38,943 nt of DNA, taken from contig JBQCEJ010000225.1 in the NCBI GenBank assembly GCA_051960355.1, positions 1-38,943 of the forward strand, written 5' to 3'. Both the position numbers and the translations under genes were made by a program. Source of the DNA: Verrucomicrobiota bacterium. Its GTDB lineage: Bacteria > Verrucomicrobiota > Verrucomicrobiia > Limisphaerales > DASXHY01. Positions within the stretch are counted from its first letter, which is position 1, and the number at the start of each line of letters is the position of its first letter. Under the pieces are notes generated by a model, which was not told where the DNA came from, made no database searches, and worked only from the letters and a program-made list of their open reading frames with translations. Positions 1-19,557 of the stretch are shown piece after piece.

Positions 1-1
1 G

Positions 2-1195
2 AACTTCCTTAACCGGAAGAACGAGGCAGACCAGCGGGTCTATGAGTTACTGGCCCAAAAATTCCAGCTTTTCGAAGGTGTCTTTGGCGCGAGCGACGAA
101 GTCCTGGGTGCCATTGAATCCGGCGTGGATTTCGAGAAGCGCATCAATGACATTTACCAGCGGTGTCGCAAGCACGAGGAAATCAAAACCGCCTTCGACA
201 AACTACAACTTGAGTTAAATCTGGAAATCAATTCGGCGATGACGCAAACCCGCCGCAAGCTGCTGGAGAACTTCGACGACGATGTTCGCGACAAGCTGAA
301 AATGCGGGACGAGAAGTCCAGGGCCTCTCTGAACAAGTTTGAGCGGTTGCTGATGCAACTCACACGGCACGAGTTGAGCGGTCACGCTGAGTTCGCAGAT
401 GATTCTGAATTCACACTGAAGTCTTGTCCATTTCCCGGTGAGATTCCGTTAGGCCGCTATGAGTTACCGCGTCGTTCTGGAGAAGCGCATCTCTATCGAC
501 TCGGCCATCCGCTCGCAGAATCAGTTCTCGCGCAGGCAAATAGACGGGAACTTTCTCCGGCGGAAATTCAGTTCGATTATTCCGCACACGATGGAAAGAT
601 CTCACTTCTGAAACCGTTGGCCGGCGAATCGGGATGGTTGACGCTCTCGCTATTCAGTGTTGAATCGCTGCACCAAACGGAAGACCGATTGATTTTTTCA
701 GCGATGACAGATGGCGGGCACGTTTTGGACGAAGAAATATCTCAACGACTGTTTTCCCTGGCTGGCTCGACGGAATCGCGTGTGTTCAATGTTCCGCCAG
801 GCGAACTGGAAACCGTCACACAGCAACGGAAAGCGACCATTCAGCGAGAAATTACCGAGCGGAACGCACAGTTCTTCGAAGCCGAAGCCGACAAACTTGA
901 AGGCTGGGCAGACGATATTAAGCTGGGGCTCGAACGGGAAATCAAAGAGCTTGACCGCCAAATCAAAGAGGCACGGCGGACCGCGACGCTGGCGCTCACT
1001 TTGGAAGAGAAGTTGGCAGGACAGAAACTGATCAAGGCACTGGAGGCGCAACGTGGCAACAAGCGCCGTTCCCTCTTCGATGCACAGGACAAGGTGGATA
1101 AACAACGCGATGAGTTGATTGCCAACATTGAACGAAAGTTAACGCAAAATGCCGCGCTGTTACGGCTTTTCACGGTTCGTTGGAAAGTGGTTTGA
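2..1195 (+). CDS. C-terminal part of a large SF2 (probably SNF2-like) helicase; 5' end lies outside the window
   Basis: Frame 2 is open from nt 2: NFLNRKNEADQRVYELLAQKFQLFEGVFGASDEVLG precedes the listed GTG at 125, so the gene enters the window truncated. It has a long C-terminal coiled-coil (EAEADKLEGWADDIKLGLEREIKELDRQIKEARR...). No helicase motifs fall inside the window. The SNF2 assignment rests on my recollection of this type of tail in defence-associated SNF2 helicases. Confidence 0.5.
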   Translation, partial: NFLNRKNEADQRVYELLAQKFQLFEGVFGASDEVLGAIESGVDFEKRINDIYQRCRKHEEIKTAFDKLQLELNLEINSAMTQTRRKLLENFDDDVRDKLKMRDEKSRASLNKFERLLMQLTRHELSGHAEFADDSEFTLKSCPFPGEIPLGRYELPRRSGEAHLYRLGHPLAESVLAQANRRELSPAEIQFDYSAHDGKISLLKPLAGESGWLTLSLFSVESLHQTEDRLIFSAMTDGGHVLDEEISQRLFSLAGSTESRVFNVPPGELETVTQQRKATIQREITERNAQFFEAEADKLEGWADDIKLGLEREIKELDRQIKEARRTATLALTLEEKLAGQKLIKALEAQRGNKRRSLFDAQDKVDKQRDELIANIERKLTQNAALLRLFTVRWKVV

Positions 1196-1200
1196 ATCCT

Positions 1201-1377
1201 ATGGACACTCCATCTCAAAAACTCGCGTCGAAAATCGTTGAGCGTCTTGTCTCAGAGAAGCTGCTCAACGTTGAAGCTGGGAAGAAGCTCCTGCCAAAGT
1301 TAATGGCTGGAAAACTCAATGCCGAAGATTGGCGATTGCCGATAGAAACCTCCGACAAAAAGGAGGCGAAACCGTGA
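1201..1377 (+). CDS. small hypothetical protein (58 aa)
   Basis: ATG at 1201 lies 5 nt after the helicase stop (TGA 1193-1195). Its stop TGA (1375-1377) overlaps the GTG start of the next gene (GTGA). No recognisable domain. Confidence 0.4.
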   Translation: MDTPSQKLASKIVERLVSEKLLNVEAGKKLLPKLMAGKLNAEDWRLPIETSDKKEAKP

Positions 1378-3704
1378 ACACAGCGCCATTGGCCAAGCTG
1401 ACGATTGCTCACCTTCGCGGCTCCGTGGTTCCATTCAACCTTCCATTTGAAAAGAATAAAAAACTGACTGTGATTTATGGCGAGAATGGTACGGGCAAGT
1501 CCACTATTTGCGATGCATTCGATTTCATTGGAAACGGCAAGGTAGGGTCTTTAGAGAACAGAGGGTTGGGCAGAACTTCCAAATATTGGCAATCCGTCGG
1601 AAAGAAGGCCACTGACTTGTCCGTCACCTTGGAAACCTTGTCTGCCGATCCAAAGAAACCTGATTCATGTCAGGCAATAGTAGGAAAAAGCGATGTCGTC
1701 GTAACTCCCTCGGCATTGCGTCCAAAGGTGGAAGTTTTGAGGCGCAGTCAGATTCTCGGACTGATCGAGGCCAAACCCGGAGATCGCTATGCGGCAATCA
1801 GTCGCTTCATTGACGTTTCGGGTATCGAGGCGTCAGAAGCGGCTCTTCGCGACTTGATTCGTGGTCTAAAAGAAAGCCGTGAAATTGCGATTGCTCGGGT
1901 GCAGGAAAATCTGGAGAGCTTGATCGTTTTTTGGGAAGCGGCTGGGAAACAAGGGAACGATCATCTTGCTTGGGCCGAGGAAGAATCCAAGAGAGCACCA
2001 GAAAATTCTGCTGAAGAGCTTTCAGCCTTGGACGGTTTGCAAACCGCTTTCAATCGTCTGACAGACTATCCAGCACAATTGAAAATCGCCGACCACAACG
2101 TGACCGTTGCGCAGCAGGCAGTGGTTGATGCGAGGAAGAAGTCAGAGGAGTGCGCCAAATCAATTGCTGCGGACGCAGGCGAGACAATGGGCATTCTCGA
2201 AACCGCCAGTGCCTTTTTTCACAAGCACCCCAATCCATCCACATGCCCATTATGTGATAGCTCCGAAAAGGTGGACGGACTGGCGCAGCGGATCAAACAA
2301 CGCCTGGAGCAGTTTTCTACGTTGCAGGCTGCTCTGCAAGATCAGAGGACAGCGGAGACCAGCCTACAGCGCGCCATCCAGCAATCGGATACTTTGAAAG
2401 GAAATGCCAAAAGGCACGCCCAGGATTTTGAAAAAGTGCGGGGAAGATTGACTGAGTGGCCAAAGGACATTGAACTTCCCAAGAGCGCTGCGCCTGAAGA
2501 CGCCGCCAGGTTAGCTGAATGGCTTGAGAAAAATGCCCTTCTTCCGACTCAATGGAAGAAAGTCGAAATAGCAAGGCAGGATCGGAAACAATTCCTAACC
2601 TCACTCAAGTCGGCGCTGAAAACCTTTCAGGATAATGTCAAAGCACAGAAGGAACTCGATGCATTGCTGCCCAAGCTGTCCAAGGCACTTGAGATCGTTG
2701 AAGAAGAGCGCAGAAAACTCACGGATGAAGTCCTTTCCAAAATCGCCGGTGAAGTTGGTCGCATCTACGAAATCGTTCACCCGGGTGAAGGGCTCAACAA
2801 AATTAGCCTGGAATTGGATCCCAAGAAGCGCGCATCCCTGGAAATCGGAACCGACTTCTATGGAGAAAAAGGCGCTCCGCCCCAAGCCTTTTTCAGCGAT
2901 TCGCATCTCGACACTCTGGGTCTTTGCGTTTTTCTCGCCCTGGCGGCGCTGGATGGGCCGGAGAAAACAATTCTGGTCCTCGACGATGTTCTTGCGAGCG
3001 TCGATGAGCCTCACGTCGAACGGTTAATCGAAATGCTCTACGCCGAAGCGGTGAAATTCCGGCATTGCGTCATTTCTACCCATTATCGGCCATGGAAGCA
3101 GAAGCTACGCTGGGGCTGGTTGAAAAACGGTCAATGCCATTTCATAGAACTGACCAGATGGACTGATCAGCGTGGCCTCACTCTTATCCGAAGTGTGCCG
3201 GATGCGGACCGCTTAAAGATTCTGCTCGCGGAGTCGCCGCCTGATCCACAGCTAGTTTGTGCCAAGGCGGGAGTGATTCTGGAAGCCATCCTCGATTTCA
3301 TTACCCAGATTTACGAATGCTCGATCCCGAGACGTCCGGGCGGCCTTTACACACTCGGCGATCTCTTGCCTTCCATCGACAAAAAGCTCCGTAATGCGTT
3401 GACCGTCGAAATCATGGCAAGGGACGAAGTCGGAACAGTCACCTATACATCCGTTAAGCTGGCGCCCATTCTCGACGAATTGATTCGAATTGCGCAAACC
3501 CGAAACGTTTTCGGATGTCACTTCAACACGCTCTCATTTGAACTGCTGGAAACGGATGCAATTGGTTTTGGAAAAAATGTCCTGCATTTGAGCGAAGCAA
3601 TCACTTGCCCTGAAGCGGGCTGGCCGAGAAGTGACAAGTCTGGAAAGTATTGGGCAACGTCCGGAGAAACGCGGCGTCTGCATCCTTTGCAACAACCGAC
3701 CTGA
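1374..3704 (+). CDS. SMC/Rad50-like ABC-type ATPase (AAA_13 / RloC-PrrC-like architecture) with a coiled-coil insertion and a C-terminal effector-like domain
   Basis: AGGAGG at 1361-1366 lies 7 nt before GTG 1374. Walker A GENGTGKST (1479-1505). About 300 aa of coiled-coil with CPLC at 2244-2255. Signature-like FSDSHLDTLGLCVFLALA. Walker B/D-loop ILVLDDVLASVDEPH (from 2970). ISTH H-loop. About 190-aa C-terminal domain containing RNVFGCH (3501-3521). Confidence 0.85.
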   Translation: MNTAPLAKLTIAHLRGSVVPFNLPFEKNKKLTVIYGENGTGKSTICDAFDFIGNGKVGSLENRGLGRTSKYWQSVGKKATDLSVTLETLSADPKKPDSCQAIVGKSDVVVTPSALRPKVEVLRRSQILGLIEAKPGDRYAAISRFIDVSGIEASEAALRDLIRGLKESREIAIARVQENLESLIVFWEAAGKQGNDHLAWAEEESKRAPENSAEELSALDGLQTAFNRLTDYPAQLKIADHNVTVAQQAVVDARKKSEECAKSIAADAGETMGILETASAFFHKHPNPSTCPLCDSSEKVDGLAQRIKQRLEQFSTLQAALQDQRTAETSLQRAIQQSDTLKGNAKRHAQDFEKVRGRLTEWPKDIELPKSAAPEDAARLAEWLEKNALLPTQWKKVEIARQDRKQFLTSLKSALKTFQDNVKAQKELDALLPKLSKALEIVEEERRKLTDEVLSKIAGEVGRIYEIVHPGEGLNKISLELDPKKRASLEIGTDFYGEKGAPPQAFFSDSHLDTLGLCVFLALAALDGPEKTILVLDDVLASVDEPHVERLIEMLYAEAVKFRHCVISTHYRPWKQKLRWGWLKNGQCHFIELTRWTDQRGLTLIRSVPDADRLKILLAESPPDPQLVCAKAGVILEAILDFITQIYECSIPRRPGGLYTLGDLLPSIDKKLRNALTVEIMARDEVGTVTYTSVKLAPILDELIRIAQTRNVFGCHFNTLSFELLETDAIGFGKNVLHLSEAITCPEAGWPRSDKSGKYWATSGETRRLHPLQQPT

Positions 3705-4158
3705 TCCTTTGAGCGAGAAGTTTACCGTCAACTTCAAGACCTCAACCGGGCATCACGTTCGGGTGACATTGGGATATTTTTGGCAGGAACTATCGGACTC
3801 CGACCGCCTCTTTGGATACAAACCCAAGCAGTTTCATGCGGTTCACGTTTATTCGACTGAAGACACCTTCCCGCGGCACTTGCAACTTCGGCATGAATAC
3901 CTGGCCGACAAGGATTACCAGCCCAAAATCGAAGCTGATTTGAAAATCTGGCTCGCCTCGATAATGAACGACAAACGGCATGGCGACTACGATTGTGTTG
4001 AAGACTTCCTGATAGATTTGGCAGACTCTTTCGAGCATCTGGCTGCTGAAACTGGCGATCTCATCCATCATCTGGCAGACCCTAGCATGGAAAACGATCC
4101 ATCGCTGCTTGGGTTTGAAGTGGATGACGAGCCGAAGGAAGAAGAGCCAGAACGTTGA
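3631..4158 (+). CDS. hypothetical protein with an acidic C-terminal tail (start uncertain; alternative TTG at 3709)
   Basis: ORF in the operon frame. GTG 3631 overlaps the ATPase gene by 74 nt. The in-frame TTG 3709 lies 5 nt after the ATPase stop. The C-terminus is EVDDEPKEEEPER. The stop TGA (4156-4158) overlaps TTG 4155 of mod. No domain recognised. Confidence 0.55.
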   Translation: MTSLESIGQRPEKRGVCILCNNRPDPLSEKFTVNFKTSTGHHVRVTLGYFWQELSDSDRLFGYKPKQFHAVHVYSTEDTFPRHLQLRHEYLADKDYQPKIEADLKIWLASIMNDKRHGDYDCVEDFLIDLADSFEHLAAETGDLIHHLADPSMENDPSLLGFEVDDEPKEEEPER

Positions 4159-4163
4159 GTGCG

Positions 4164-5888
4164 ATGATTTCAAAGAAGCAAAAACTTGAACTGACGTGGA
4201 TTGGGAAGGAAAACCGACCACGCCTGGAGCCGCGCATCCTGCTGGAGGACGCGGAGAAATCCTATCACGCCAAACACCGCGTCACCGACAATGATCTGTT
4301 CGATAACCGGCTCATTTTTGGCGACAATCTGCTCGCCCTCAAAGCGCTCGAACAGGAGTTCGCCGGCAAGATCAAGTGCATCTTCATTGACCCGCCTTAC
4401 AACACCGGCAGCGCTTTCAGTCATTACGATGACGGCATTGAACATTCCATTTGGCTTTCGCTAATGCGTGACCGACTCGAATTGCTACGCAAACTGCTTT
4501 CAGAGGACGGGGTGATATGGATTACTATTGACGACAACGAATGCCATTACCTCAAAATCCTTTGCGACGAAGTTTTCGGACGGGAAAATTTTGTCGCAAA
4601 CGTAATTTGGGAGAAGAAATCGTCATCGCAGTCTAACGCACAATGGCTTTCTGATTCCCACGACCATGTTCTAGTCTTTGCGAAAAACAAAGAAATTTGG
4701 CGTCCGGCAAAACTCGCAAGAACGGATGAGCAGAACGCAATTTACAAACACTGTGACGAATACGATGGAATAGACGCTAAAGGAAAAAGATATGGACGCG
4801 GTCCGTGGTTCCCTGGGGATTTCACAATCAGTCTTACAACCGGCCAGCGCGGGAAACAGTTTGCCAAAACAGGCGTCTCCGCAAATTTGTATCCAATCAC
4901 CACTCCCTCCGGGCGCGAGGTGATGCCTGCAAAAGGTAGGTGCTGGGCATACACAAAAGATTCGTTTGAACGTCTAAAGGCCGATAAGAGAGTGTATTTT
5001 GGCAAGGATGGAAGCAGCAAGCCAACGATCAAAAGATTCTTGTCCGAAATTGAAGACCAAGGAGTCGTTTGTCCAACCGTTTGGCACTATTCAGAAGTTG
5101 GCGAAAACCGAATTGCAGCAGTCGAAGTCAAAGCCTTCAACGAAGCGGATCCTTTTTCGGCCCCGAAGCCCGAACTGCTCCTTAAACGAGTTTTGGAACT
5201 TTCTACTAGCCCTCTTGATTGGGTTCTCGACTCCTTCGGCGGTTCAGGCACGACGGGCGCAGTCGCTCACAAAATGGGCCGTCGGTGGATCATGGTTGAG
5301 TTGGGTGAACATTGTCACACGCACATCATTCCCCGGCTCGAGAAAGTGATTGATGGTGCAGACTCCGGCGGGATTACAGAGGCTGTCGCCTGGAAAGGCG
5401 GCGGCGGGTTCCGTTATTACCGGCTCGCACCGTCGCTCCTGGAAAAAGACAAGTGGGGCAATTGGGTCATCAGCAAGGAGTTCAACGCCGCCATGCTCGC
5501 TGAGGCGGCTTGCAAGCTGGAAGGTTTCCAATACGCGCCCAGCGACACAGTGTATTGGCAGCACGGTCACTCCACTGAGCGGGATTTTATTTACGTCACC
5601 ACCGCGCACCTGACCGCTGACCAACTCGCGCAATTGAGCGATGAAGTCGGGCCAGAGCGCACGCTGCTGGTCCTTTGCGCCGCCTTCCGCGCAGGCACCC
5701 AGAACGTCACCGACCGGTTTCCCAACCTGACCGTGAAGAAGATTCCGAAACAGGTCCTCTCCCGCTGCGAATGGGGTCATGACGATTACAGCTTGAAAGT
5801 TGAAAACCTACCCAAAGCGCCGCCTCCGCTCCCGGCGGTGGACAAAAAGGGTCAGCAAACCCTGTTTTCAGAGGAGCCCGGTCGATGA
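4164..5888 (+). CDS. mod: Type III R-M Mod subunit; beta-class N6-adenine (or N4-cytosine) DNA methyltransferase
   Basis: Motif IV IFIDPPYNTG (DPPY at 4389-4400) precedes motif I DSFGGSGTTG (5235-5255), which is the beta-class order typical of Type III Mod. About 270 aa between them could be a target-recognition region. The N-terminal KLELTWIGKENRPRLEPRILLED is typical of this family. The start is ATG 4164, or TTG 4155 overlapping the upstream stop. Confidence 0.9.
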   Translation: MISKKQKLELTWIGKENRPRLEPRILLEDAEKSYHAKHRVTDNDLFDNRLIFGDNLLALKALEQEFAGKIKCIFIDPPYNTGSAFSHYDDGIEHSIWLSLMRDRLELLRKLLSEDGVIWITIDDNECHYLKILCDEVFGRENFVANVIWEKKSSSQSNAQWLSDSHDHVLVFAKNKEIWRPAKLARTDEQNAIYKHCDEYDGIDAKGKRYGRGPWFPGDFTISLTTGQRGKQFAKTGVSANLYPITTPSGREVMPAKGRCWAYTKDSFERLKADKRVYFGKDGSSKPTIKRFLSEIEDQGVVCPTVWHYSEVGENRIAAVEVKAFNEADPFSAPKPELLLKRVLELSTSPLDWVLDSFGGSGTTGAVAHKMGRRWIMVELGEHCHTHIIPRLEKVIDGADSGGITEAVAWKGGGGFRYYRLAPSLLEKDKWGNWVISKEFNAAMLAEAACKLEGFQYAPSDTVYWQHGHSTERDFIYVTTAHLTADQLAQLSDEVGPERTLLVLCAAFRAGTQNVTDRFPNLTVKKIPKQVLSRCEWGHDDYSLKVENLPKAPPPLPAVDKKGQQTLFSEEPGR

Positions 5889-5927
5889 AACCCTGCCTTG
5901 TCAAAGCCCCCGAGCGGAGTTAGCGTC

Positions 5928-6719
5928 ATGCCTAGTGAAGAGCCAGACAAGACAGTTTCAACCAGTCAAACCGCTTCTCACCCAGAAGCAGCTTGCGCAG
6001 ATCTTGTCCAATCGGCGCTCCATTTCCTCCGCCGAAGCTCATCGCCAGATGGCCGCCCACTTGGGCCGTCCTCTGTCGCCAGGCAGAAAGCTGACCTTCG
6101 TCAATGGGCGCAAGGTCTGGGCTTGCTGCTGACGCCGGACTGGCTTCCCACTATTCCGCTTCGAGGCGGACAGGAACACGATCTCTATCACGACACGCTG
6201 TCGGACCGCTATTTCAAGGTCACCCGCGAGGGCGTTTTCGGCTTCTCCCCCGGTATTGAACTCGCGCTGGTTTCCTCTGGCGAAGACGCCCGGCGTTTTC
6301 ATCTCTGGGAAGCCACCCCCGTGGAGTATTTGGAACGCCTCGCCCTGCACAACCAACTTGTCCCGGAAATTAACCGGCTGGAAGGCGTCTTGGATCAACC
6401 CGATGGCGACATGGCCGTCGTCACCTCCCAGCCGCGGTTCGATATTGTACCGGTTACGGAGTCGGAAATTGACGCGTGGTTTGCCGGACTGGGCTTCACC
6501 CGAATTACGCGCTCCGCCTATTACCGTGCCGACGACAACTTGGGAGTGTTTGACGCCCACGACAAAAACGTCGTTCGTGCCGGGACTTCGTTGATCCCAT
6601 TTGATATCATTCCCTGCCGCCCGGCCGAAGGGTTCCTGAAGTTCATCGAAGACACCCTGGCCGCAGGGCATACCCTCACGGCGCAGCGCACTGCCACCAC
6701 TTCATCTCGTTCAAAATGA
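5928..6719 (+). CDS. protein-kinase-fold protein (polyvalent-protein-type kinase-like) inserted between mod and res
   Basis: Motifs occur in kinase-like order and spacing: RGGQEHDLY (Gly-rich, from 6162), YFKVT Lys (6216-6218), FDAHDKN giving D-x4-N (6549-6569), and PFD 12 residues after the Asn (6597-6605). The stop overlaps the res start (ATGA 6716-6719). The start is ATG 5928 or TTG 5898. Confidence 0.6.
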   Translation: MPSEEPDKTVSTSQTASHPEAACADLVQSALHFLRRSSSPDGRPLGPSSVARQKADLRQWAQGLGLLLTPDWLPTIPLRGGQEHDLYHDTLSDRYFKVTREGVFGFSPGIELALVSSGEDARRFHLWEATPVEYLERLALHNQLVPEINRLEGVLDQPDGDMAVVTSQPRFDIVPVTESEIDAWFAGLGFTRITRSAYYRADDNLGVFDAHDKNVVRAGTSLIPFDIIPCRPAEGFLKFIEDTLAAGHTLTAQRTATTSSRSK

Positions 6720-9406
6720 AACCCCAGGTAAATGCCATCTCCGGTCGTCTGAGTCTGCGCCCGCCGCAACGTCGTTCGCTCGAAATCCTCGACCGGCTCA
6801 CGGAAATCGTCCCACCAAACAAGGGTTATGATCTGCCCGCCGCGCTGGAGATCATCAAGGGCGAGTTCCCGACGGTAAGCGATTTCGAGCGCGAGTTTCC
6901 CTCCCTTTGCTTTGCGCTGGCGACCGGCGTTGGCAAGACACGGCTCATGGGTGCTTTCATCAGCTACCTGCACCTCGCGCACGGCATCAACAATTTCTTC
7001 GTCATGGCTCCGAACCTGACGATTTACAACAAGCTGATTAACGACTTCACGCCGAACACGTCCAAATACGTGTTCAAAGGCATCGCCGAATTCGCCACCG
7101 ATTCACCGGAGATCATCACCGGCGACAACTATGAAGCCAAGGCAGGCACGCTGTTCGACCAGGTGCTTCGGTGCAAGATCAACATCTTCAACATCTCCAA
7201 GATCAATTCCGAGGTTCGCGGCGGCAAATCCCCGCGCATCAAACGTCTCTCGGAATACATTGGCGAAAGCTATTTTGAATATCTCGCCGCGTTGCCCGAC
7301 CTCGTGCTCATCATGGATGAGTCCCATCGCTATCGCGCCAGCGCTGGCGTGCGGGCGATCAACGAGTTGAAGCCGGTCATCGGCTTGGAATTGACGGCAA
7401 CGCCGATGGTCGAAACCTCCAAAGGCGCGGTGCCGTTCAAGAACGTCATTCTCGATTATCCGCTCGGCAAGGCGATGGCCGACGGATTCGTGAAAGAGCC
7501 AGCCGTCGTCACGCGCAAGAATTTCAATCCCGCCGGAATGACGCCGGAGGCCATCGAGCAGATGAAGCTCGAAGACGGTATTCGCTTGCACGAAAGCGTG
7601 AAGGTCGAACTGGAGACCTACGCTCGGGAGAGCGGCAACGCCATTGTGAAACCGTTCGTCCTCGTGATCGCCCGCGATACCACGCACGCCGGGCAGTTGA
7701 TGAAGCTGATTCAGTCCGAGGATTTCTTCAAAGGCGCATACAAGTCCAAGGTCATCCAGGTGGACTCCAGCAGGACCGGCGCGGAGGAAGACGAAATGGT
7801 CGAGCGTTTGTTGAAGGTAGAGCACAACGATGAGCCGACCGAAATCGTCATTCACGTGAACATGCTCAAAGAAGGGTGGGACGTGACGAATCTTTACACC
7901 ATTGTCCCGCTACGCGCCGCCAACGCGCGCATCCTGATCGAGCAGTCCATCGGGCGCGGCTTGCGTTTGCCGTACGGCAAGCGCACCGGGGTCAATGCAG
8001 TGGACCGCCTGAACATCATTGCGCACGACAAGTTTCAGGAAATCGTGGATGAAGCGAAAAAGCCCGATTCGGCCATTCGTCTGCAACAGGTCATTCTTGA
8101 GCCTGACAAACTGACCGAGAAAACCGTCACCGTCGTTTCACAGCCGCAACTGGCGAGCAAGCTCGGCTTTCAACCCGAGCAGACCACAGCGAGCACCCTT
8201 GTTCCCCAATCCGCCGAGTCGCCGGTGTTTACCACGCCGGAAGATCAGAAGGTTGCTCAAATCACCTACGAGGTGATCCGCAAGCTGGAAAATCAGCCGC
8301 AGAAGTTGCCGAGCGTCTCATACCTGTCCAAACCGGAAGTGCAGGCAGCGGTGTTGAAGGAAGTCCAGACGCAGTATCGGCCATCCCAACTGGAGATCGA
8401 AGGCGTGGCCAAGCAGCCAGATTTCGCGGCCATCGTAGCCAGAACCACGGAAGTCGTGATTCAGCAGACGATTGATATTCCGCGCATCCTGGTCGTGCCG
8501 ACCGGCAAAGTGCAATCCGGCTTCAATCCGTTCACCTTGAATCTCTCGACAATCAAATATCCGGTCGTTTCAGAAGAGCTTTGGGCCAAGCATCTGCGAA
8601 CGGATCAGGTGGACGTGATTGCCATGGGTAAAGGCGGCATCGAGGAAGCGCGTCTCGAAGACTACGTTGTAAGCGGCTTGGTGGATTTTGACGATGTTTC
8701 CTACGACGCCCATGCCGACCTGCTTTATGACCTCGCAGCCCAGGTCGTGAAGCATCTCCGCAGCTACCTTCCTGACGAGCACGAGATCAGCAAAGTGCTG
8801 CGCTGTTACCAGCGCGACATCGCCCGCTTCGTCCACGCGCAGATGCAGGAACACTATTGGGAGAAGGCTACCGGCTACGAAGTGAAAATCAGCAAAGGCT
8901 ATTCAGAATTAAAGCCCAGCGCATACACCGCCTCGGCCGCCGAGCCGGTGCTCGATTATCGCCAACCGCCTTCCGACAAGAGCAACATGGCCAAGTATTT
9001 GTTCGGTGGCTTCAAACGGTGCCTCTACCCGGTGCAGAAGTTCCAATCCGACAGCGAACGCAAACTGTCCGTGATTTTGGAGCGTGAAGCCGCAAAGTGG
9101 TTCAAGCCAGCAAAGGGGCAATTCCAGATCTTCTACAAATCGGGCGCTGACCATCTCGAATACCAACCCGATTTCGTCGCCGAAACCGACGGGGTGATTT
9201 ACATGCTTGAGCCCAAGGCAAAGAACGAAATGGCCGACGCCGAGGTTGTCGCCAAAAAGGAAGTGGCGGTGAAATGGTGCGGGCAAGCCAGTGATCATGC
9301 CGCTACGCATACCGGCAAGAAATGGCATTATCTTCTGATCCCCCACGACGCCATCGCCGAAAACATGACGCTGGAAGGTTTGGCGAAGCAATACAAAGTG
9401 AACTGA
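6716..9406 (+). CDS. res: Type III restriction enzyme Res subunit (SF2 helicase plus C-terminal PD-(D/E)xK nuclease)
   Basis: Motif I ALATGVGKTR (6923-6940). Motif II LIMDESHR. Motif III LELTATP. HVNMLKEGWDVTNLY. Motif VI QSIGRGLRLP. C-terminal YQPDFVAETDGVIYMLEPKAKNE, i.e. PD...EPK (9167-9217). Confidence 0.9.
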   Translation: MKPQVNAISGRLSLRPPQRRSLEILDRLTEIVPPNKGYDLPAALEIIKGEFPTVSDFEREFPSLCFALATGVGKTRLMGAFISYLHLAHGINNFFVMAPNLTIYNKLINDFTPNTSKYVFKGIAEFATDSPEIITGDNYEAKAGTLFDQVLRCKINIFNISKINSEVRGGKSPRIKRLSEYIGESYFEYLAALPDLVLIMDESHRYRASAGVRAINELKPVIGLELTATPMVETSKGAVPFKNVILDYPLGKAMADGFVKEPAVVTRKNFNPAGMTPEAIEQMKLEDGIRLHESVKVELETYARESGNAIVKPFVLVIARDTTHAGQLMKLIQSEDFFKGAYKSKVIQVDSSRTGAEEDEMVERLLKVEHNDEPTEIVIHVNMLKEGWDVTNLYTIVPLRAANARILIEQSIGRGLRLPYGKRTGVNAVDRLNIIAHDKFQEIVDEAKKPDSAIRLQQVILEPDKLTEKTVTVVSQPQLASKLGFQPEQTTASTLVPQSAESPVFTTPEDQKVAQITYEVIRKLENQPQKLPSVSYLSKPEVQAAVLKEVQTQYRPSQLEIEGVAKQPDFAAIVARTTEVVIQQTIDIPRILVVPTGKVQSGFNPFTLNLSTIKYPVVSEELWAKHLRTDQVDVIAMGKGGIEEARLEDYVVSGLVDFDDVSYDAHADLLYDLAAQVVKHLRSYLPDEHEISKVLRCYQRDIARFVHAQMQEHYWEKATGYEVKISKGYSELKPSAYTASAAEPVLDYRQPPSDKSNMAKYLFGGFKRCLYPVQKFQSDSERKLSVILEREAAKWFKPAKGQFQIFYKSGADHLEYQPDFVAETDGVIYMLEPKAKNEMADAEVVAKKEVAVKWCGQASDHAATHTGKKWHYLLIPHDAIAENMTLEGLAKQYKVN

Positions 9407-9475: not shown

Positions 9476-9550
<75 letters not shown>

Positions 9551-12019: not shown

Positions 12020-12739
12020 TTACTCGCCAAGGTTGCGGCGCAGCAGCGCGTTCAAGCGGGCCGGCGAGAGGATCGTCACGGTCTTGTCTTTGACGGTCAG
12101 AAGCTTTTGCTGCCGGAACTTGGCCAATGTGCGGGAAAACGTTTCGCTGACCGTGCCGAGTTCGGCCGCCAGCACGCGCTTGGTCATGGTCAATTCGATG
12201 CGCGCCGGCTGTTCGCTGGCGGGATTGGGACAGCGCTTGATCAGCCAGTTGGCCAGCCGGGTTTCCACATCCTTCAAGGTCAGGTCTTCGAGTTGGCCGA
12301 CGAGCACGCGCAGATGACTGCTCATCGAGCCGAGCATGCGCAGCGCGAGTTCCGGCTGGCGTTGCAGCAGGGCGAGAATGCCGGCCTTTTGAACGAGCAG
12401 AACCTGCGAGGCCTCAAGTGCACGCGCATCGGCGGGATAACCCTTTTCGGAAGCCAGCGCCACTTCGGCAAAAGAATCGCCGGTGCGGAAGACGTGGATG
12501 ATCTGTTCCTTGCCCGCGGCGCTGACGCGATGAACGTTCACCGCGCCGCGCTGCACAATGTAAAAACCCACAGCGGGATCGCCTTCGTGAAACAAATAAT
12601 CCCCTTTATCAAGCGCCTTCACCACGGTCACGGCGGCGATATTTTCCAGATCCTGCAGCGGCAGTCCGGTGAACAACTGACAACTTCGGAGCGTGTTGAC
12701 GATGGCAATGGTTTTGAATTCGTTCAGAGCGGCGGACAT
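12020..12739 (-). CDS. Crp/Fnr-family transcriptional regulator (DNR/NnrR-like; no FNR-type Cys cluster)
   Basis: cNMP-binding fold ([23 protein letters not shown]...GDSFAEVAL) and a C-terminal HTH ([23 protein letters not shown]). It has a single N-terminal Cys. It lies in the nirK operon. Confidence 0.85.
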
Positions 12740-12748
12740 GCGAACGAT

Positions 12749-12997
12749 TCAAGCAGTTTCCCGCCAAAAGTAAACCAGCCAGTCCGCCCCTGCCCCACGC
12801 TCAACCTTGGATGCAAAACCTTCACTGCTCAATTTCTCAATCAACGGCGAGGGCAGAAAGGGTGCGATGACCAGCAAGCCTTTGCCCGCAGGCAGCGCGT
12901 CCACGCGCTTGCGAATTTCAGGAAAGGGCTCGGTGCCGCCGCGAATCATCTCGCGCACGTCGAACCGCTTGAAAGCAGTGATCGGAGGAGTGCTCAT
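12749..12997 (-). CDS. DUF2249 domain protein
   Basis: An 82-aa ORF with a DUF2249-like pattern (FDVREMIRGGTEPFPEIRKRVDALPAGKGLLVIAPFLPSPLIEKL). Its start overlaps the sco stop (ATGA at 12994-12997). Confidence 0.65.
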   Translation of the reverse strand: MSTPPITAFKRFDVREMIRGGTEPFPEIRKRVDALPAGKGLLVIAPFLPSPLIEKLSSEGFASKVERGAGADWLVYFWRETA

Positions 12998-13620
12998 TGG
13001 CTGTTCATGGTTTTAAGTTTTTCGATAACACCGTCCGTCGGGAGATTCAAGCCCGGCTGTTGAAACACGATTTCACCCTCGGCATTCAATACCGTGATGA
13101 GATTGGAATGCGCGAATTGCCCGCTCGCATCCTTCCGATAATTCACGCCGAGCAAAGCCGCCAGTTCACGCACATTGTCCGGCTCACCCCGCAACAGCGT
13201 CCAGTCGGCCTTTGGCAGATCGCGTTCAATCCGCATCGCGTGCAGAGCCTCTGGCGTGTCGCGCTCGCTGTCAAACGAGATCAGCGTGAAACCCACGTTC
13301 GTGCGCAACGCTTCCGGCAAGGCGCTGGCAATGCGCTTGAGGTCGTTCACCAGGATGGGACACGTGTACTGGCAACTGGAGAAAAACATGATCACGACCT
13401 GCGGCTTGCCGCGCAAGGCGCCGAGCCGGATCGGCTTCGCTTCGTCTGTCGTCCAGATCGAATCAATTTGATAAAGCGACTTGTCGGTGAACGTCGCCGG
13501 CGCGAGTGTTTTGGAGCAGCACGCAGGCAAATCAGGACTGCTGTTCCTTTCCGGGGCTGGTGCGGCGCCTGCAATCGACCAAGCCAAAGCGGCGGCCAGC
13601 AGAATTGTTGGAGTCTTCAT
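12994..13620 (-). CDS. SCO1/SenC-family copper chaperone (thioredoxin fold)
   Basis: CxxxCP motif (SCQYTCP) plus a downstream His (FAHSN). Signal peptide MKTPTILLAAALAWSIAGA. The ATG at 13620 overlaps the nirV stop (ATGA). Confidence 0.8.
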   Translation of the reverse strand: MKTPTILLAAALAWSIAGAAPAPERNSSPDLPACCSKTLAPATFTDKSLYQIDSIWTTDEAKPIRLGALRGKPQVVIMFFSSCQYTCPILVNDLKRIASALPEALRTNVGFTLISFDSERDTPEALHAMRIERDLPKADWTLLRGEPDNVRELAALLGVNYRKDASGQFAHSNLITVLNAEGEIVFQQPGLNLPTDGVIEKLKTMNSQ

Positions 13621-17341: not shown

Positions 17342-19557
17342 ATGGCCACACTACCTGTTTCCGCTGAAGAAGTGATTGCCCGTTTCGGGCCGTCCCTGAA
17401 TTTCCCACCCGCCCAGGGCATTCCCGGACGCGACGAACCAGATCAAGTCGTCAAGACGCACTGTTGTTTCTGCGGCATGCAGTGCGGAATCAAACTGCTG
17501 GTGAAGGAAAACCGCGTGGTCGGATTCGAGCCTTGGGAGGAATTTCCCTTCAACGAAGGCCGGCTTTGCCCGAAAGGCGTGCAGCGCTACTTGCAAAATA
17601 ATCATCCCGATCGCCTGCTCGATCCGATTCAGCGCGTCGAAGGGAAAGGCTTTCTGCCCATCAGTTGGGATGCGGCGTTCGAGCAGATGATTCCGGAGAT
17701 CCAGCGCATCCAGGGGAAATACGGCAAGGACGCGTTCGCAATGCTTTCCGGCGTGTCGCTGACGAACGAGAAAAGTTATCTCGTCGGCAAATTTGCGCGC
17801 GTCGCGCTCAAGACCAAGAATCTGGATTACAATGGCCGGCTATGCATGGTCAGCGCCGGTGCGGGAAACAAGAAAGCCTTTGGGCTCGATCGCGGATCAA
17901 ACAATTACTCCGATCTGGCGCACGCCGAGGTCATCATGATCTGCGGCACAAACGTGAGCGAAACCTTTCCGACGCTCACGCACTGGATCTGGCAGGCTCG
18001 CGATAACGGCGCCAAGCTCATTGTCGTGGACCCGCGCCTCACGCCCATTGCGCGGACCGCGGATCTGCATCTGCCGATTCACCCGGGTCGCGACTCCGCG
18101 CTCTACGGCGCGATTCTGCATCAACTGATCAAGCATGATTGGCTGGACCATGAATTCATTGCCAACCACGCGAGCGGCTTTGAAGAGGCCAAGAAAGCCG
18201 TCGAGTCCTACGACCTCGATTGGGCCGAGCGCACCACCGGCATTCCGAAAGAGAAAATTCTGCAAGCGGCCAAATGGTGGGGCCCAGCCAAGACCAGTTT
18301 TCTGTTGCACGCCCGCGGCATTGAACATCAGAGCAAAGGCGTGGAAAACGTGCTCGCCTGCATCAACCTCGTGCTCGCCACCGGGCGCATTGGAAAACCC
18401 TACTGTGGTTATGCCACGATCACCGGCCAAGGCACGGCCAGGGTGGCCGCGAGCACGGACACAAGTGCGATCAACTGCCCGGCAACCGCGACATTGAAAA
18501 TCCGGAACATCGCAAATACATCAGCAGCGTTTGGGGCATCGATGAAAAAGAACTGCCCGGCAAAGGCCTCACTGCATATGAAATCATGGAGGCGATTCAT
18601 CGCGGCGAAATCAAAGGGCTGATCAGCATCTGCTTCAACCCGCTGGTTTCGTTGCCCAACAACAACATGATTCGCGAGGCTTTGGAGAAGCTCGAATATT
18701 ACGTCTGCATTGATTTCTTTCTCAACGAAACCGCCCGCCACGCAAATCTCATTCTGCCCGGATCGCTCCAGGAGGAAGAGGATGGCACCGTCACCACGGC
18801 CGAGGGCCGCGTGGTGCGCATTCGCAAAGCGGTCAACCCGCCTGGCAACGCCCGCACAGACACCAGCATTCTATTGGAAATTGCCAAGCGCCTCGGCGCC
18901 GAAAAACATTTCACTTACAATTCCTCAGAGGAAATTTTCAATGAATTGCGCGTCGCTTCCAAAGGCGGCACAGCGGACTACTTCGGCATCACTTACCAGA
19001 AGATCGAAGACAACATGGGCGTCTTCTGGCCCTGTCCTTCCGAGGATCATCCCGGCACGCCGCGCTTGTGGGAAGATCGCAAATTCAAAACGCCGGATGG
19101 CCGCGCGCATTTTCACGGCGTCCCTTATCGTGATCCGGCCGAACTTACTGATGCCGATTACCCAATGATCCTGACCACCGGGCGCGTGGTGTCCCAATAC
19201 TTGAGCGGCACGCAAACCCGCCGCATCGGCAAGCTGGTGGGCCAATATCCCGAGCCGCTGCTGGAAATTCATCCCATGACGGCGGCGCGCTACGGCATTC
19301 AGGAACGCGAACTGGTTCGTGTTTCGACGCGGCGCGGTTCCGCCGAATATCCGGCACAACTGGTCGAGACCATCCGAGAGGACACGGTCTTCGTTCCGTA
19401 TCATTGGCCGGGCCGCAAGTCAGTGAATCAGTTGACGTCCGGCCATCTCGATCCGGTCTCTAAAATTCCCGAATTCAAAGTGTGCGCCTGCCGGCTAGAG
19501 CCGTTGGGACGTCCCGCTCCATCCGCCGAAGTCACCAAAGCTTACGCCAGCGCATGA
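17342..19557 (+). pseudogene. molybdopterin (bis-MGD) oxidoreductase catalytic subunit, NasC/NarB-like nitrate reductase family, interrupted by an apparent 1-nt frameshift near 18434
   Basis: N-terminal 4Fe-4S motif [10 protein letters not shown]...LCPKG and no Tat signal. ORF 17342..18622 loses family similarity after ATITGQG. From 18439 the +1 frame reads [61 protein letters not shown] and runs straight into ORF 18586..19557. The observed ggcacggcc versus the expected ggcaacggcc (GNGQGG) implies one missing A. Confidence 0.8.

Follow-up and report, generated by a model that had tools for sequence, protein, structure and literature searches.

The first 9406 nucleotides of a 38,943-nucleotide stretch from a Verrucomicrobiota bacterium (contig JBQCEJ010000225.1 of assembly GCA_051960355.1, forward strand; hereafter the window) carry seven co-directional genes around a type III restriction-modification (R-M) pair. 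The genes are named g1 to g7 in their order, all positions are window coordinates, and L-numbers (e.g., L089) designate comparison loci or contigs. As judged from sequence comparison, the locus is probably a horizontally acquired mosaic defence island organized as a single operon. Its backbone would consist of three genes, an SNF2 helicase (g1), a methyltransferase (Mod, g5) and a restriction endonuclease (Res, g7), with cargo inserted at two slots.

The unit conserved across many phyla was a DrmD-like SNF2 helicase together with a type III Mod and a type III Res. The res gene itself is strongly conserved and widely transferred. A search with one genome per species gave 590 relatives, and the best 80, with 66–89% identity, were used for the locus analysis. 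They belonged to the Verrucomicrobiota, several proteobacterial classes, Cyanobacteria, Firmicutes, Chloroflexota, Planctomycetota, Acidobacteriota, Nitrospirota and others. The loci were probed by tblastn with the seven window proteins and a full-length SNF2. Mod was found upstream of Res wherever the sequence allowed it, and an SNF2 homologue (58–85% identity) followed further upstream on the same strand in 37 of the 48 loci with at least 8 kb of upstream sequence. Two loci (L065 and L067) were compact SNF2-Mod-Res operons, with gaps of 4–12 bp. The same trio, at 48–52% identity and with Abi and AIPR cargo, was present on E. coli chromosomes (102 of 5426 complete genomes) and on Salmonella IncFIB plasmids. 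For example, E. coli strain 164 (L126, NZ_CP048367.1) had the order SNF2-Abi-AIPR-Mod-Res. The E. coli relative adjoins a tRNA-Sec and an integrase.

Slot 1, between helicase and mod, ranged from 4 bp to 5.5 kb and was occupied in 35 of 38 assessable loci. Slot 2, between mod and res, ranged from 0 to 2.4 kb and was occupied in 39 of 69. The open reading frames (ORFs) in the slots were clustered and representatives were scanned by profile. The most common slot 1 cargo was AIPR/AbiU (16 loci) and the g3 ATPase (12–13 loci), with IetA plus IetS, DUF2130 plus Old, Ppl and HEC-01A as further cargo; Fic-, ImmA/PIN- and HigBA-like genes were judged by eye from their translations, without a profile scan. 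Slot 2 held YhcG/DUF1016 (8 loci), RhuM (7), PDDEXK_3 (6), MntA/HepT and a Zeta-like ATPase, plus an Abi_2-like gene also judged by eye from translations. The cargo was mostly, though not entirely, composed of recognizable defence or toxin modules. Earlier comparative work has described RhuM-like and Fic/Doc-like toxins beside R-M operons (PMC3710099). Because the cargo families overlap those reported there, the operon appears to be a carrier of interchangeable defence and toxin cargo. In the window, slot 1 is occupied by g2-g3 and g4, and slot 2 by g6.

An earlier, sequence-only reading of this DNA had described type III mod and res as the centre of a co-directional defence operon with almost no intergenic space. 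The ORFs and junctions bear this out: all seven ORFs were present on the + strand at 1–9406, and direct reading of the sequence matched every junction quoted. The helicase fragment g1 (1..1195, frame from base 2, cut by the window edge) stops with TGA at 1193–1195, ahead of the ATG of g2 (1201..1377) at 1201. An AGGAGG at 1361–1366 precedes the GTGA at 1374–1377, in which the g2 stop overlaps the start of g3 (1374..3704). The g3 stop (TGA 3702–3704) is followed by TTG 3709 of g4 (3709..4158), whose own stop overlaps the start of g5 (4155..5888) in TTGA 4155–4158. Downstream of the g5 stop (TGA 5886–5888) lie TTG 5898 and ATG 5928, and the ATGA at 6716–6719 joins g6 (5928..6719) to g7 (6716..9406). 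Three starts were refined. For g3 we use GTG 1374, the corresponding 776-aa product being on record on two other contigs. TTG 3709 of g4 (149 aa) agrees with the gene call on an identical contig and with a homologue, and was preferred to the overlapping start at 3631. For g6, ATG 5928 gives 263 aa, as in ~470 homologues, and was preferred to TTG 5898. A scan found no terminator-like sites on the + strand within 1–9406, and promoter-like matches within the gene string were at chance level only. A single transcription unit, as claimed in the earlier reading, is compatible with these results, such scans being weak evidence. Its domain inventory of an SNF2 helicase, an SMC/Rad50-like ATPase, a type III Mod, a kinase and a type III Res was recovered in Pfam, PADLOC and NCBIfam.

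The operon is a recombinational mosaic. The G + C content was 49–52% in g1–g4 and in the first two-thirds of mod (N-terminal part and target-recognition region), and 56–59% in the mod C-terminus, the kinase gene and res. Within mod the break is sharp, with 49% for the N-terminal part and target-recognition region vs 58% for the C-terminal part, which suggests a recombination joint inside this gene. The G + C content at third codon positions was 0.54 in g3 vs 0.73 in res. A tRNA-Lys(CTT) gene (9476..9550, − strand, predicted by ARAGORN) follows res at a distance of 70 bp and points its 3′ end towards the island; beyond it there are ordinary chromosomal genes for metabolism, regulation and housekeeping. 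L089, the closest relative of the operon, sits on an integrase-bearing element. The tRNA-Lys(CTT) is likely the integration site or boundary of the island, the other boundary lying outside the window.

With respect to the backbone proteins, g1 represents the C-terminal 397 aa of a DrmD-like SNF2 helicase of ~950 aa. The only match of the fragment was DISARM DrmD (PADLOC, 4e-37). A contig of the same organism (L001) extended it to 872 aa, with SNF2-rel_dom and Helicase_C domains, and likewise broke off inside the helicase gene. Full-length relatives matched PADLOC DrmD at 5.5e-207. On the NCBIfam model DISARM_DrmD_b they reached 635–704 bits vs a cut-off of 950, and the C-terminal third was unmatched, so we regard the helicase as a DrmD paralogue and not as an equivalog.

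g5 encodes the type III Mod, which belongs to the beta class of N6/N4 methyltransferases (PF01555, 1e-46; PADLOC MTase_III, 5e-216). Its DPPY motif (4389–4400, aa 79–82) lies ahead of the FxGxG motif, here FGGSG (5235–5249, aa 361–365), with a variable target-recognition region between them, as is typical of type III Mod. This central region of ~140 aa was replaced among relatives, while the ends remained 68–86% identical. No meaningful tandem repeats pointing to mod phase variation were found. The 896-aa product of g7 (PF04851, 1e-21; PADLOC REase_III, 7e-215) has an SF2 helicase and a C-terminal PD-(D/E)xK nuclease, and the motifs TGVGKT, DESH, QSIGRGLR and PDF...EPKAK identify it as a type III Res. 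The catalytic motifs of Mod and Res are intact, and both enzymes are predicted from their families to be active. Mod would methylate one strand of an asymmetric site, and incoming DNA that lacks this mark would be cut by Mod-Res once the sites have communicated at the expense of ATP. Type III cleavage depends on ATP and on two unmodified sites in inverse orientation. The SNF2 helicase may act as an ancillary translocase.

The helicase also connects the locus to DISARM, whose hallmarks had been reported as absent from the window. This holds for DUF1998 and PLD: DrmA, DrmB (DUF1998) and DrmC (PLD) had no match among the seven window proteins, and the gene calls showed no DUF1998 or DrmC-type PLD gene in or beside the operons of relatives. 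It has to be qualified for the helicase, which is itself DrmD-like. The operon resembles class 1 DISARM (DrmD, DrmMI, DrmA, DrmB, DrmC) in opening with a helicase gene that PADLOC, though not the NCBIfam cut-off, places close to DrmD, and in having behind it a methylase of the adenine type that would mark an asymmetric site. Unlike in DISARM, the effector is a canonical type III Res, and the methylase belongs to PF01555 instead of PF13659.

The nearest described system, compared by description, is EcoR22I, a type III mod-res pair from a P4 hotspot, where it is associated with a drmD-like SNF2 helicase (Silas et al., 10.1101/2023.04.06.535777). EcoR22I restricts phage and also kills the cell upon Ocr, and the helicase is dispensable for that phenotype (10.1101/2023.04.06.535777). 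Both systems have SNF2 ahead of mod and res, in a mobile element or hotspot. EcoR22I differs in having been described as three genes without embedded cargo, and in its longer Res (catalytic residues D1024/D1043, vs 896 aa in total here). Because of this longer Res it probably belongs to another clade, as far as the description allows a comparison.

Slot 1 of the window begins with the g2-g3 pair. The 58-aa product of g2 had no family match in Pfam, PADLOC or NCBIfam, and was conserved beside g3 in the relatives by tblastn, gene calls and alignment. The pair was found in 12–13 Res-anchored loci, including members merely 30% identical, and in all five loci reached independently through g3 homologues (L087, L088, L089, L124 and L125), these five being a small sample. 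Its position was between helicase and mod in every context examined, and g2 preceded g3 wherever the small ORF was detectable (10 of 13 Res-anchored loci and all five others). L088 carried a clean SNF2-g2-g3-Mod-Res operon. In L064 g3 stood before AIPR and in L125 after it, and because of this variable order the pair appears to behave like a cassette. g2-g3 is optional for the backbone, yet among the contexts examined so far it was seen nowhere else. Two of the g3-bearing operons were decayed: in L087 (11273–12346) Mod was truncated and a stretch of 9 kb contained no Res, and in L124 (13036–14668) Mod was split into two ORFs.

The g3 product is a 776-aa Rad50/SMC/RloC-like ABC ATPase with 743 homologues. 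It matched AAA_13 (41.8 bits, cut-off 36, model positions 275–597 of 713), SMC_N, LmuB (3.6e-24) and, weakly, Rad50. In 13 relatives down to 30% identity we found invariant the Walker A motif (GENGTGKST), a C-P-x-C motif, a signature-like SDSHLDTLG, the Walker B and D-loop (LVLDDV...D544), the switch histidine H570 and R710-N-x-x-G-x-H716. The C-P-x-C motif, in the window C291-P-L-C294 (2244..2255, + strand), lies in an insert that separates the two halves of the ATPase head. RloC is characterized by a coiled-coil insert resembling that of Rad50, in which a CXXC forms the zinc hook, by a length of 658–897 aa and by an occasional linkage to type I and III systems (PMC2610378). g3 shares with RloC and PrrC the complete ABC head (Walker A, signature, Walker B/D-loop and switch histidine), and specifically with RloC the coiled-coil insert with a zinc hook and a length within the same range. 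Like g3, PrrC, RloC and other ABC-HEPN genes reside inside R-M operons, where RhuM and Doc are found as well (PMC2610378, PMC3710099). Unlike them, g3 has RNxxGxH instead of the Arg-x3-Glu...His triad and a dedicated 58-aa partner gene, and no setting other than the SNF2-Mod-Res backbone was seen for it. Within g3, the ATPase part was most similar to the SMC-like LmuB ATPases of Lamassu (LmuA, LmuB, LmuC). The differences are that the putative effector is fused to the g3 ATPase and that the gene lies inside an R-M operon; no LmuA or LmuC match was found for g2, g4 or any neighbour. In L009, a locus without detectable SNF2, a different ABC ATPase of 943 aa (4364–7195) was encoded directly upstream of Mod. 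It had a zinc-hook-like CPVC motif and no BLAST similarity to g3, and may represent a second, independent family of Rad50-like cargo.

The last ~185 residues of g3 (3147..3701, + strand) form a putative effector domain, which carries the R710-H716 motif (3501–3521). By its sequence this domain does not match the PrrC/RloC nuclease, as the AAA_13 match ends at model position 597 of 713. A HMMER search with it returned 492 clusters at 50% identity. In the best 150 of these the domain was C-terminal in proteins of ~760–790 aa, the shorter matches being apparent fragments, so that within this set the search gave no informative domain fusions. The AlphaFold2 (AF2) model was mostly helical, with a predicted local distance difference test (pLDDT) score of 69, and a profile search of the PDB sequences gave no match. 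RNxxGxH fits within the Rx4-6H signature of HEPN RNases (PMC3710099). With this motif as the pointer, an RNase function is possible, although we would not favor it.

Following the logic of PrrC and RloC, g2-g3 could act as a second-line sensor-effector. Either DNA ends or the state of the restriction complex would be the signal read by the Rad50-like head with its zinc hook, and the C-terminal domain, perhaps the RNase considered above, would then be released. By analogy, back-up genes embedded in R-M operons would follow the layered-defence logic of PrrC, RloC and Ronin. Variable accessory defence genes between conserved genes of a modification system are also known from the Campylobacter rlo genes, from BREX with embedded BrxU/GmrSD and from Ronin. 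Here, unlike in those systems, the host operon is the SNF2/type III trio, with two defined slots and a distribution over many phyla.

Several observations weigh against a three-gene backbone with a back-up ATPase as cargo. No SNF2 was detectable within 8–10 kb in 11 of the 48 loci, so the helicase may be optional and not part of the core. The window starts inside the helicase gene, and the sequence 5′ of it lies outside the window. The HEPN/RNase view of the g3 C-terminal domain depends on a single motif. Foldseek against the PDB gave nothing significant for this domain, HEPN proteins (2hsb, 1wwp, Csm6) having the best TM-scores at E > 1. A lenient Pfam scan of five divergent C-terminal domains produced no match, and hhalign against a small HepT alignment gave a probability of 7%. 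Finally, the tight overlapping junctions and the restriction of g2-g3 to the backbone are also compatible with physical integration into the restriction complex.

This last point leads to an alternative that we regard as unlikely, in which g2-g3 is a working subunit of a five-gene restriction subtype and not an abortive-infection back-up. The ATPase would then tether or process the ends of Res-cut DNA in the manner of Rad50/SbcC, or load SNF2, and its C-terminal domain would serve for docking or DNA binding. The clean five-gene operon of L088, the occurrence of the pair only inside the backbone and always downstream of SNF2, the confinement of the C-terminal domain to the g3 architecture or apparent fragments (best 150 of 492 clusters) and the lack of structural or profile support for HEPN would all agree with such a role. 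However, most backbones do without g2-g3, the same slot takes unrelated cargo (AIPR, IetAS, Old), and the variable order of g3 and AIPR (L064, L125) fits a cassette. The invariant R-N-x-x-G-x-H also resembles a catalytic signature.

The remaining occupant of slot 1, g4, codes for an acidic near-orphan protein with only three homologues among 5.8 billion proteins and without a family match in Pfam, PADLOC or NCBIfam. A 47%-identical homologue was found in L123, in the order SNF2-AIPR-g4like-Mod. We conclude that g4 is rare slot 1 cargo. L089 lacks both g4 and the kinase gene. In the place of g4 it has an unrelated 260-aa protein (12641–13423), another slot 1 cargo, for which there was no Pfam or PADLOC match.

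Slot 2 of the window carries g6, a minimal Ser/Thr/Tyr kinase of the Kinase-PolyVal family (PF18762, 6e-10, 39.7 bits vs a cut-off of 27). All its 473 homologues, at 60–73% identity, had PF18762. E83, K97, Q168, D209/H211/N214 and D226 were invariant in 23 of the homologues. The kinase clade of the polyvalent proteins has been described as a minimal kinase without the C-terminal subdomain, with a Glu before strand 2, a Gln in the last N-lobe strand and intact residues for ATP binding and phosphotransfer (PMC5512222). g6 fits this description, with its catalytic residues intact. The AF2 model was moderate (pLDDT 70), the best PDB match in Foldseek was a Hanks kinase (E = 0.2), and there were no sequence relatives in the PDB. 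As structural confirmation was not obtained, the assignment rests on Pfam and the invariant residues.

DNA alignment with L089 and L088 showed the kinase as a clean insertion of ~830 bp, exactly between the mod stop and the res start (5889..6715, + strand). In L089, which is 83% identical in the helicase, 82% in g3 and 92% in Res, mod and res overlap. By tblastn, g6 was found in none of the best 80 Res loci. Its homologues occurred directly after hsdM in four independent type I operons (L004, L093, L096, L098), among ordinary genes on Verrucomicrobiota-type contigs (L003, L005, L116), beside a Cas3-like helicase (L095) and beside a phosphatase/ADP-ribosylglycohydrolase gene (L111), within a small sample of about 15 loci. 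The repeated landing of the kinase right after methylase genes, in two types of R-M systems, is notable, and we found no published description of it in the literature searched. A phage or plasmid origin of the kinase is unsupported, as no homologues were found in INPHARED, PLSDB or IMG/VR. A PTP-SAK-type phosphatase was encoded near the kinase in L111 (8635–10308) and L004 (18549–19091). In L111 it was fused to the ADP-ribosylglycohydrolase, immediately downstream of the kinase. Kinase and phosphatase may be paired in these two loci. We take the kinase to be an independent cargo gene, which would have landed after methylase genes several times and may provide a further layer of defence or a regulator.

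The extra genes, especially the kinase and g4, could instead be hitch-hiking or selfish passengers, kept by their insertion into an addictive R-M operon. Such an origin would suit the kinase homologues with 60–70% identity among ordinary chromosomal genes (L003, L005, L116), the missing kinase in the phage, plasmid and IMG/VR collections, and the near uniqueness of g4. We hold it to be quite unlikely, because chance would hardly place the kinase immediately behind a methylase gene at least four times in type I operons and once more in the present type III operon, and because the catalytic residues of the kinase are invariant. In addition, a large share of the identified slot cargo, with some exceptions, can be assigned to known defence or toxin families.

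The sequence-only reading had gone further and proposed one integrated seven-component machine, resembling the methylation-associated defence system MADS. MADS is an eight-gene operon with a methylase plus specificity subunit, a bipartite site, and MAD6-8 as mandatory genes in the MacSyFinder model (Maestri et al., 10.1101/2023.03.30.534895). The PADLOC match lists were complete for g1, g2, g4, g6 and g7 and comprised the best 25 for g3 and g5. Within these lists there was no match to the mad6, mad7 or mad8 models, and the sole mad model matched was mad3, weakly, on g3 (5e-11). The mad3 model scores other ABC ATPases better (Old 1e-15, Ppl 8e-18, HEC-01A 2e-28), and its match to g3 is for this reason considered generic to ABC ATPases. 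NCBIfam gave no MADS match for any of the seven proteins. None of them matched a specificity-subunit family either, and the methylase is a type III Mod. On the PADLOC and NCBIfam searches within this scope and the preprint description, membership in MADS was rejected, as no specific homology to the mad proteins was recovered.

The two have in common that they are methylation-based defence operons of several genes, whose products include ATPase, kinase, methylase and nuclease domains, and that a MAD1-like helix-turn-helix (HTH) gene stands ahead of some relatives of the window operon. They differ in that most MADS genes are required, whereas most of the extras here are dispensable by distribution. 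In L126, RefSeq annotates as 'mads1 / MAD1' a 66-aa HTH gene (1004–1204) that overlaps the SNF2 start, in a locus which is not MADS; MAD1 has been treated as a widespread regulator (10.1101/2023.03.30.534895). A MAD1-like HTH as constant first gene was rejected, since it was present only in E. coli, Salmonella, L047, L063 and L064.

The distribution of the genes speaks against a single machine. Some relatives consist of nothing but SNF2-Mod-Res (L065, L067), at least one has Mod-Res and no SNF2 (L022, where polA lies directly upstream of Mod and the helicase is consequently missing), L089 does without g4 and the kinase, and the kinase, absent from the 80 Res loci, is found elsewhere in type I or non-R-M contexts. 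The earlier reading had named an independent distribution of the extra genes as an argument against itself. Most of them are distributed in this way, and g2-g3 alone shows a specific, although optional, association with the backbone. One integrated methylation-based defence machine related to MADS is thus very improbable and largely refuted by gene distribution: its overlapping or near-abutting co-directional junctions without internal terminator, its MADS-like domain inventory (helicase, ATPase, methylase, kinase, nuclease) and the MAD1-annotated HTH gene preceding SNF2 in the E. coli relative are outweighed by the weak, generic mad3 match without any NCBIfam match, by the need of MADS for a specificity subunit, a bipartite site and MAD6-8, by closest relatives without g4 and g6 and minimal three-gene versions, and by a kinase of independent distribution and an HTH gene in few loci only.

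Farther downstream in the window, the catalytic subunit of a molybdopterin oxidoreductase (17342–19557, + strand) was split into two overlapping ORFs in different frames. The first (17342–18622) covered Fe4S4 and Molybdopterin model positions 1–229, the second (18586–19557) Molybdopterin 252–353 and Molydop_binding. A 4Fe-4S subunit and an MFS transporter followed. The split may reflect a frameshift, a pseudogene or an error in the assembly.

While the SNF2-associated type III system was already known (EcoR22I), new here are the breadth of the backbone and its two-slot organization, the uncharacterized g2-g3 module and the methylase-adjacent kinase. A bolder reading, which we put forward only tentatively and consider somewhat unlikely to hold in both its parts, is that g2-g3 is an undescribed sensor-effector working only with the DrmD-like SNF2/type III backbone and that, separately, the methylase-adjacent Kinase-PolyVal is a new class of R-M-linked kinase. 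If true, g2-g3 would define a widespread five-gene subtype that couples the sensing of DNA ends or complex state to restriction.

The picture of a seven-part machine is replaced by a testable model, in which a widely transferred SNF2/type III backbone carries interchangeable cargo. The slots offer a handle for discovery, any gene in them being a candidate defence gene. First candidates are the g2-g3 zinc-hook ATPase module, the near-orphan g4 and the minimal kinase that recurs beside methylase genes. The backbone family also offers natural comparisons, with and without the helicase, for the role of DrmD-like helicases in type III restriction and in DISARM.

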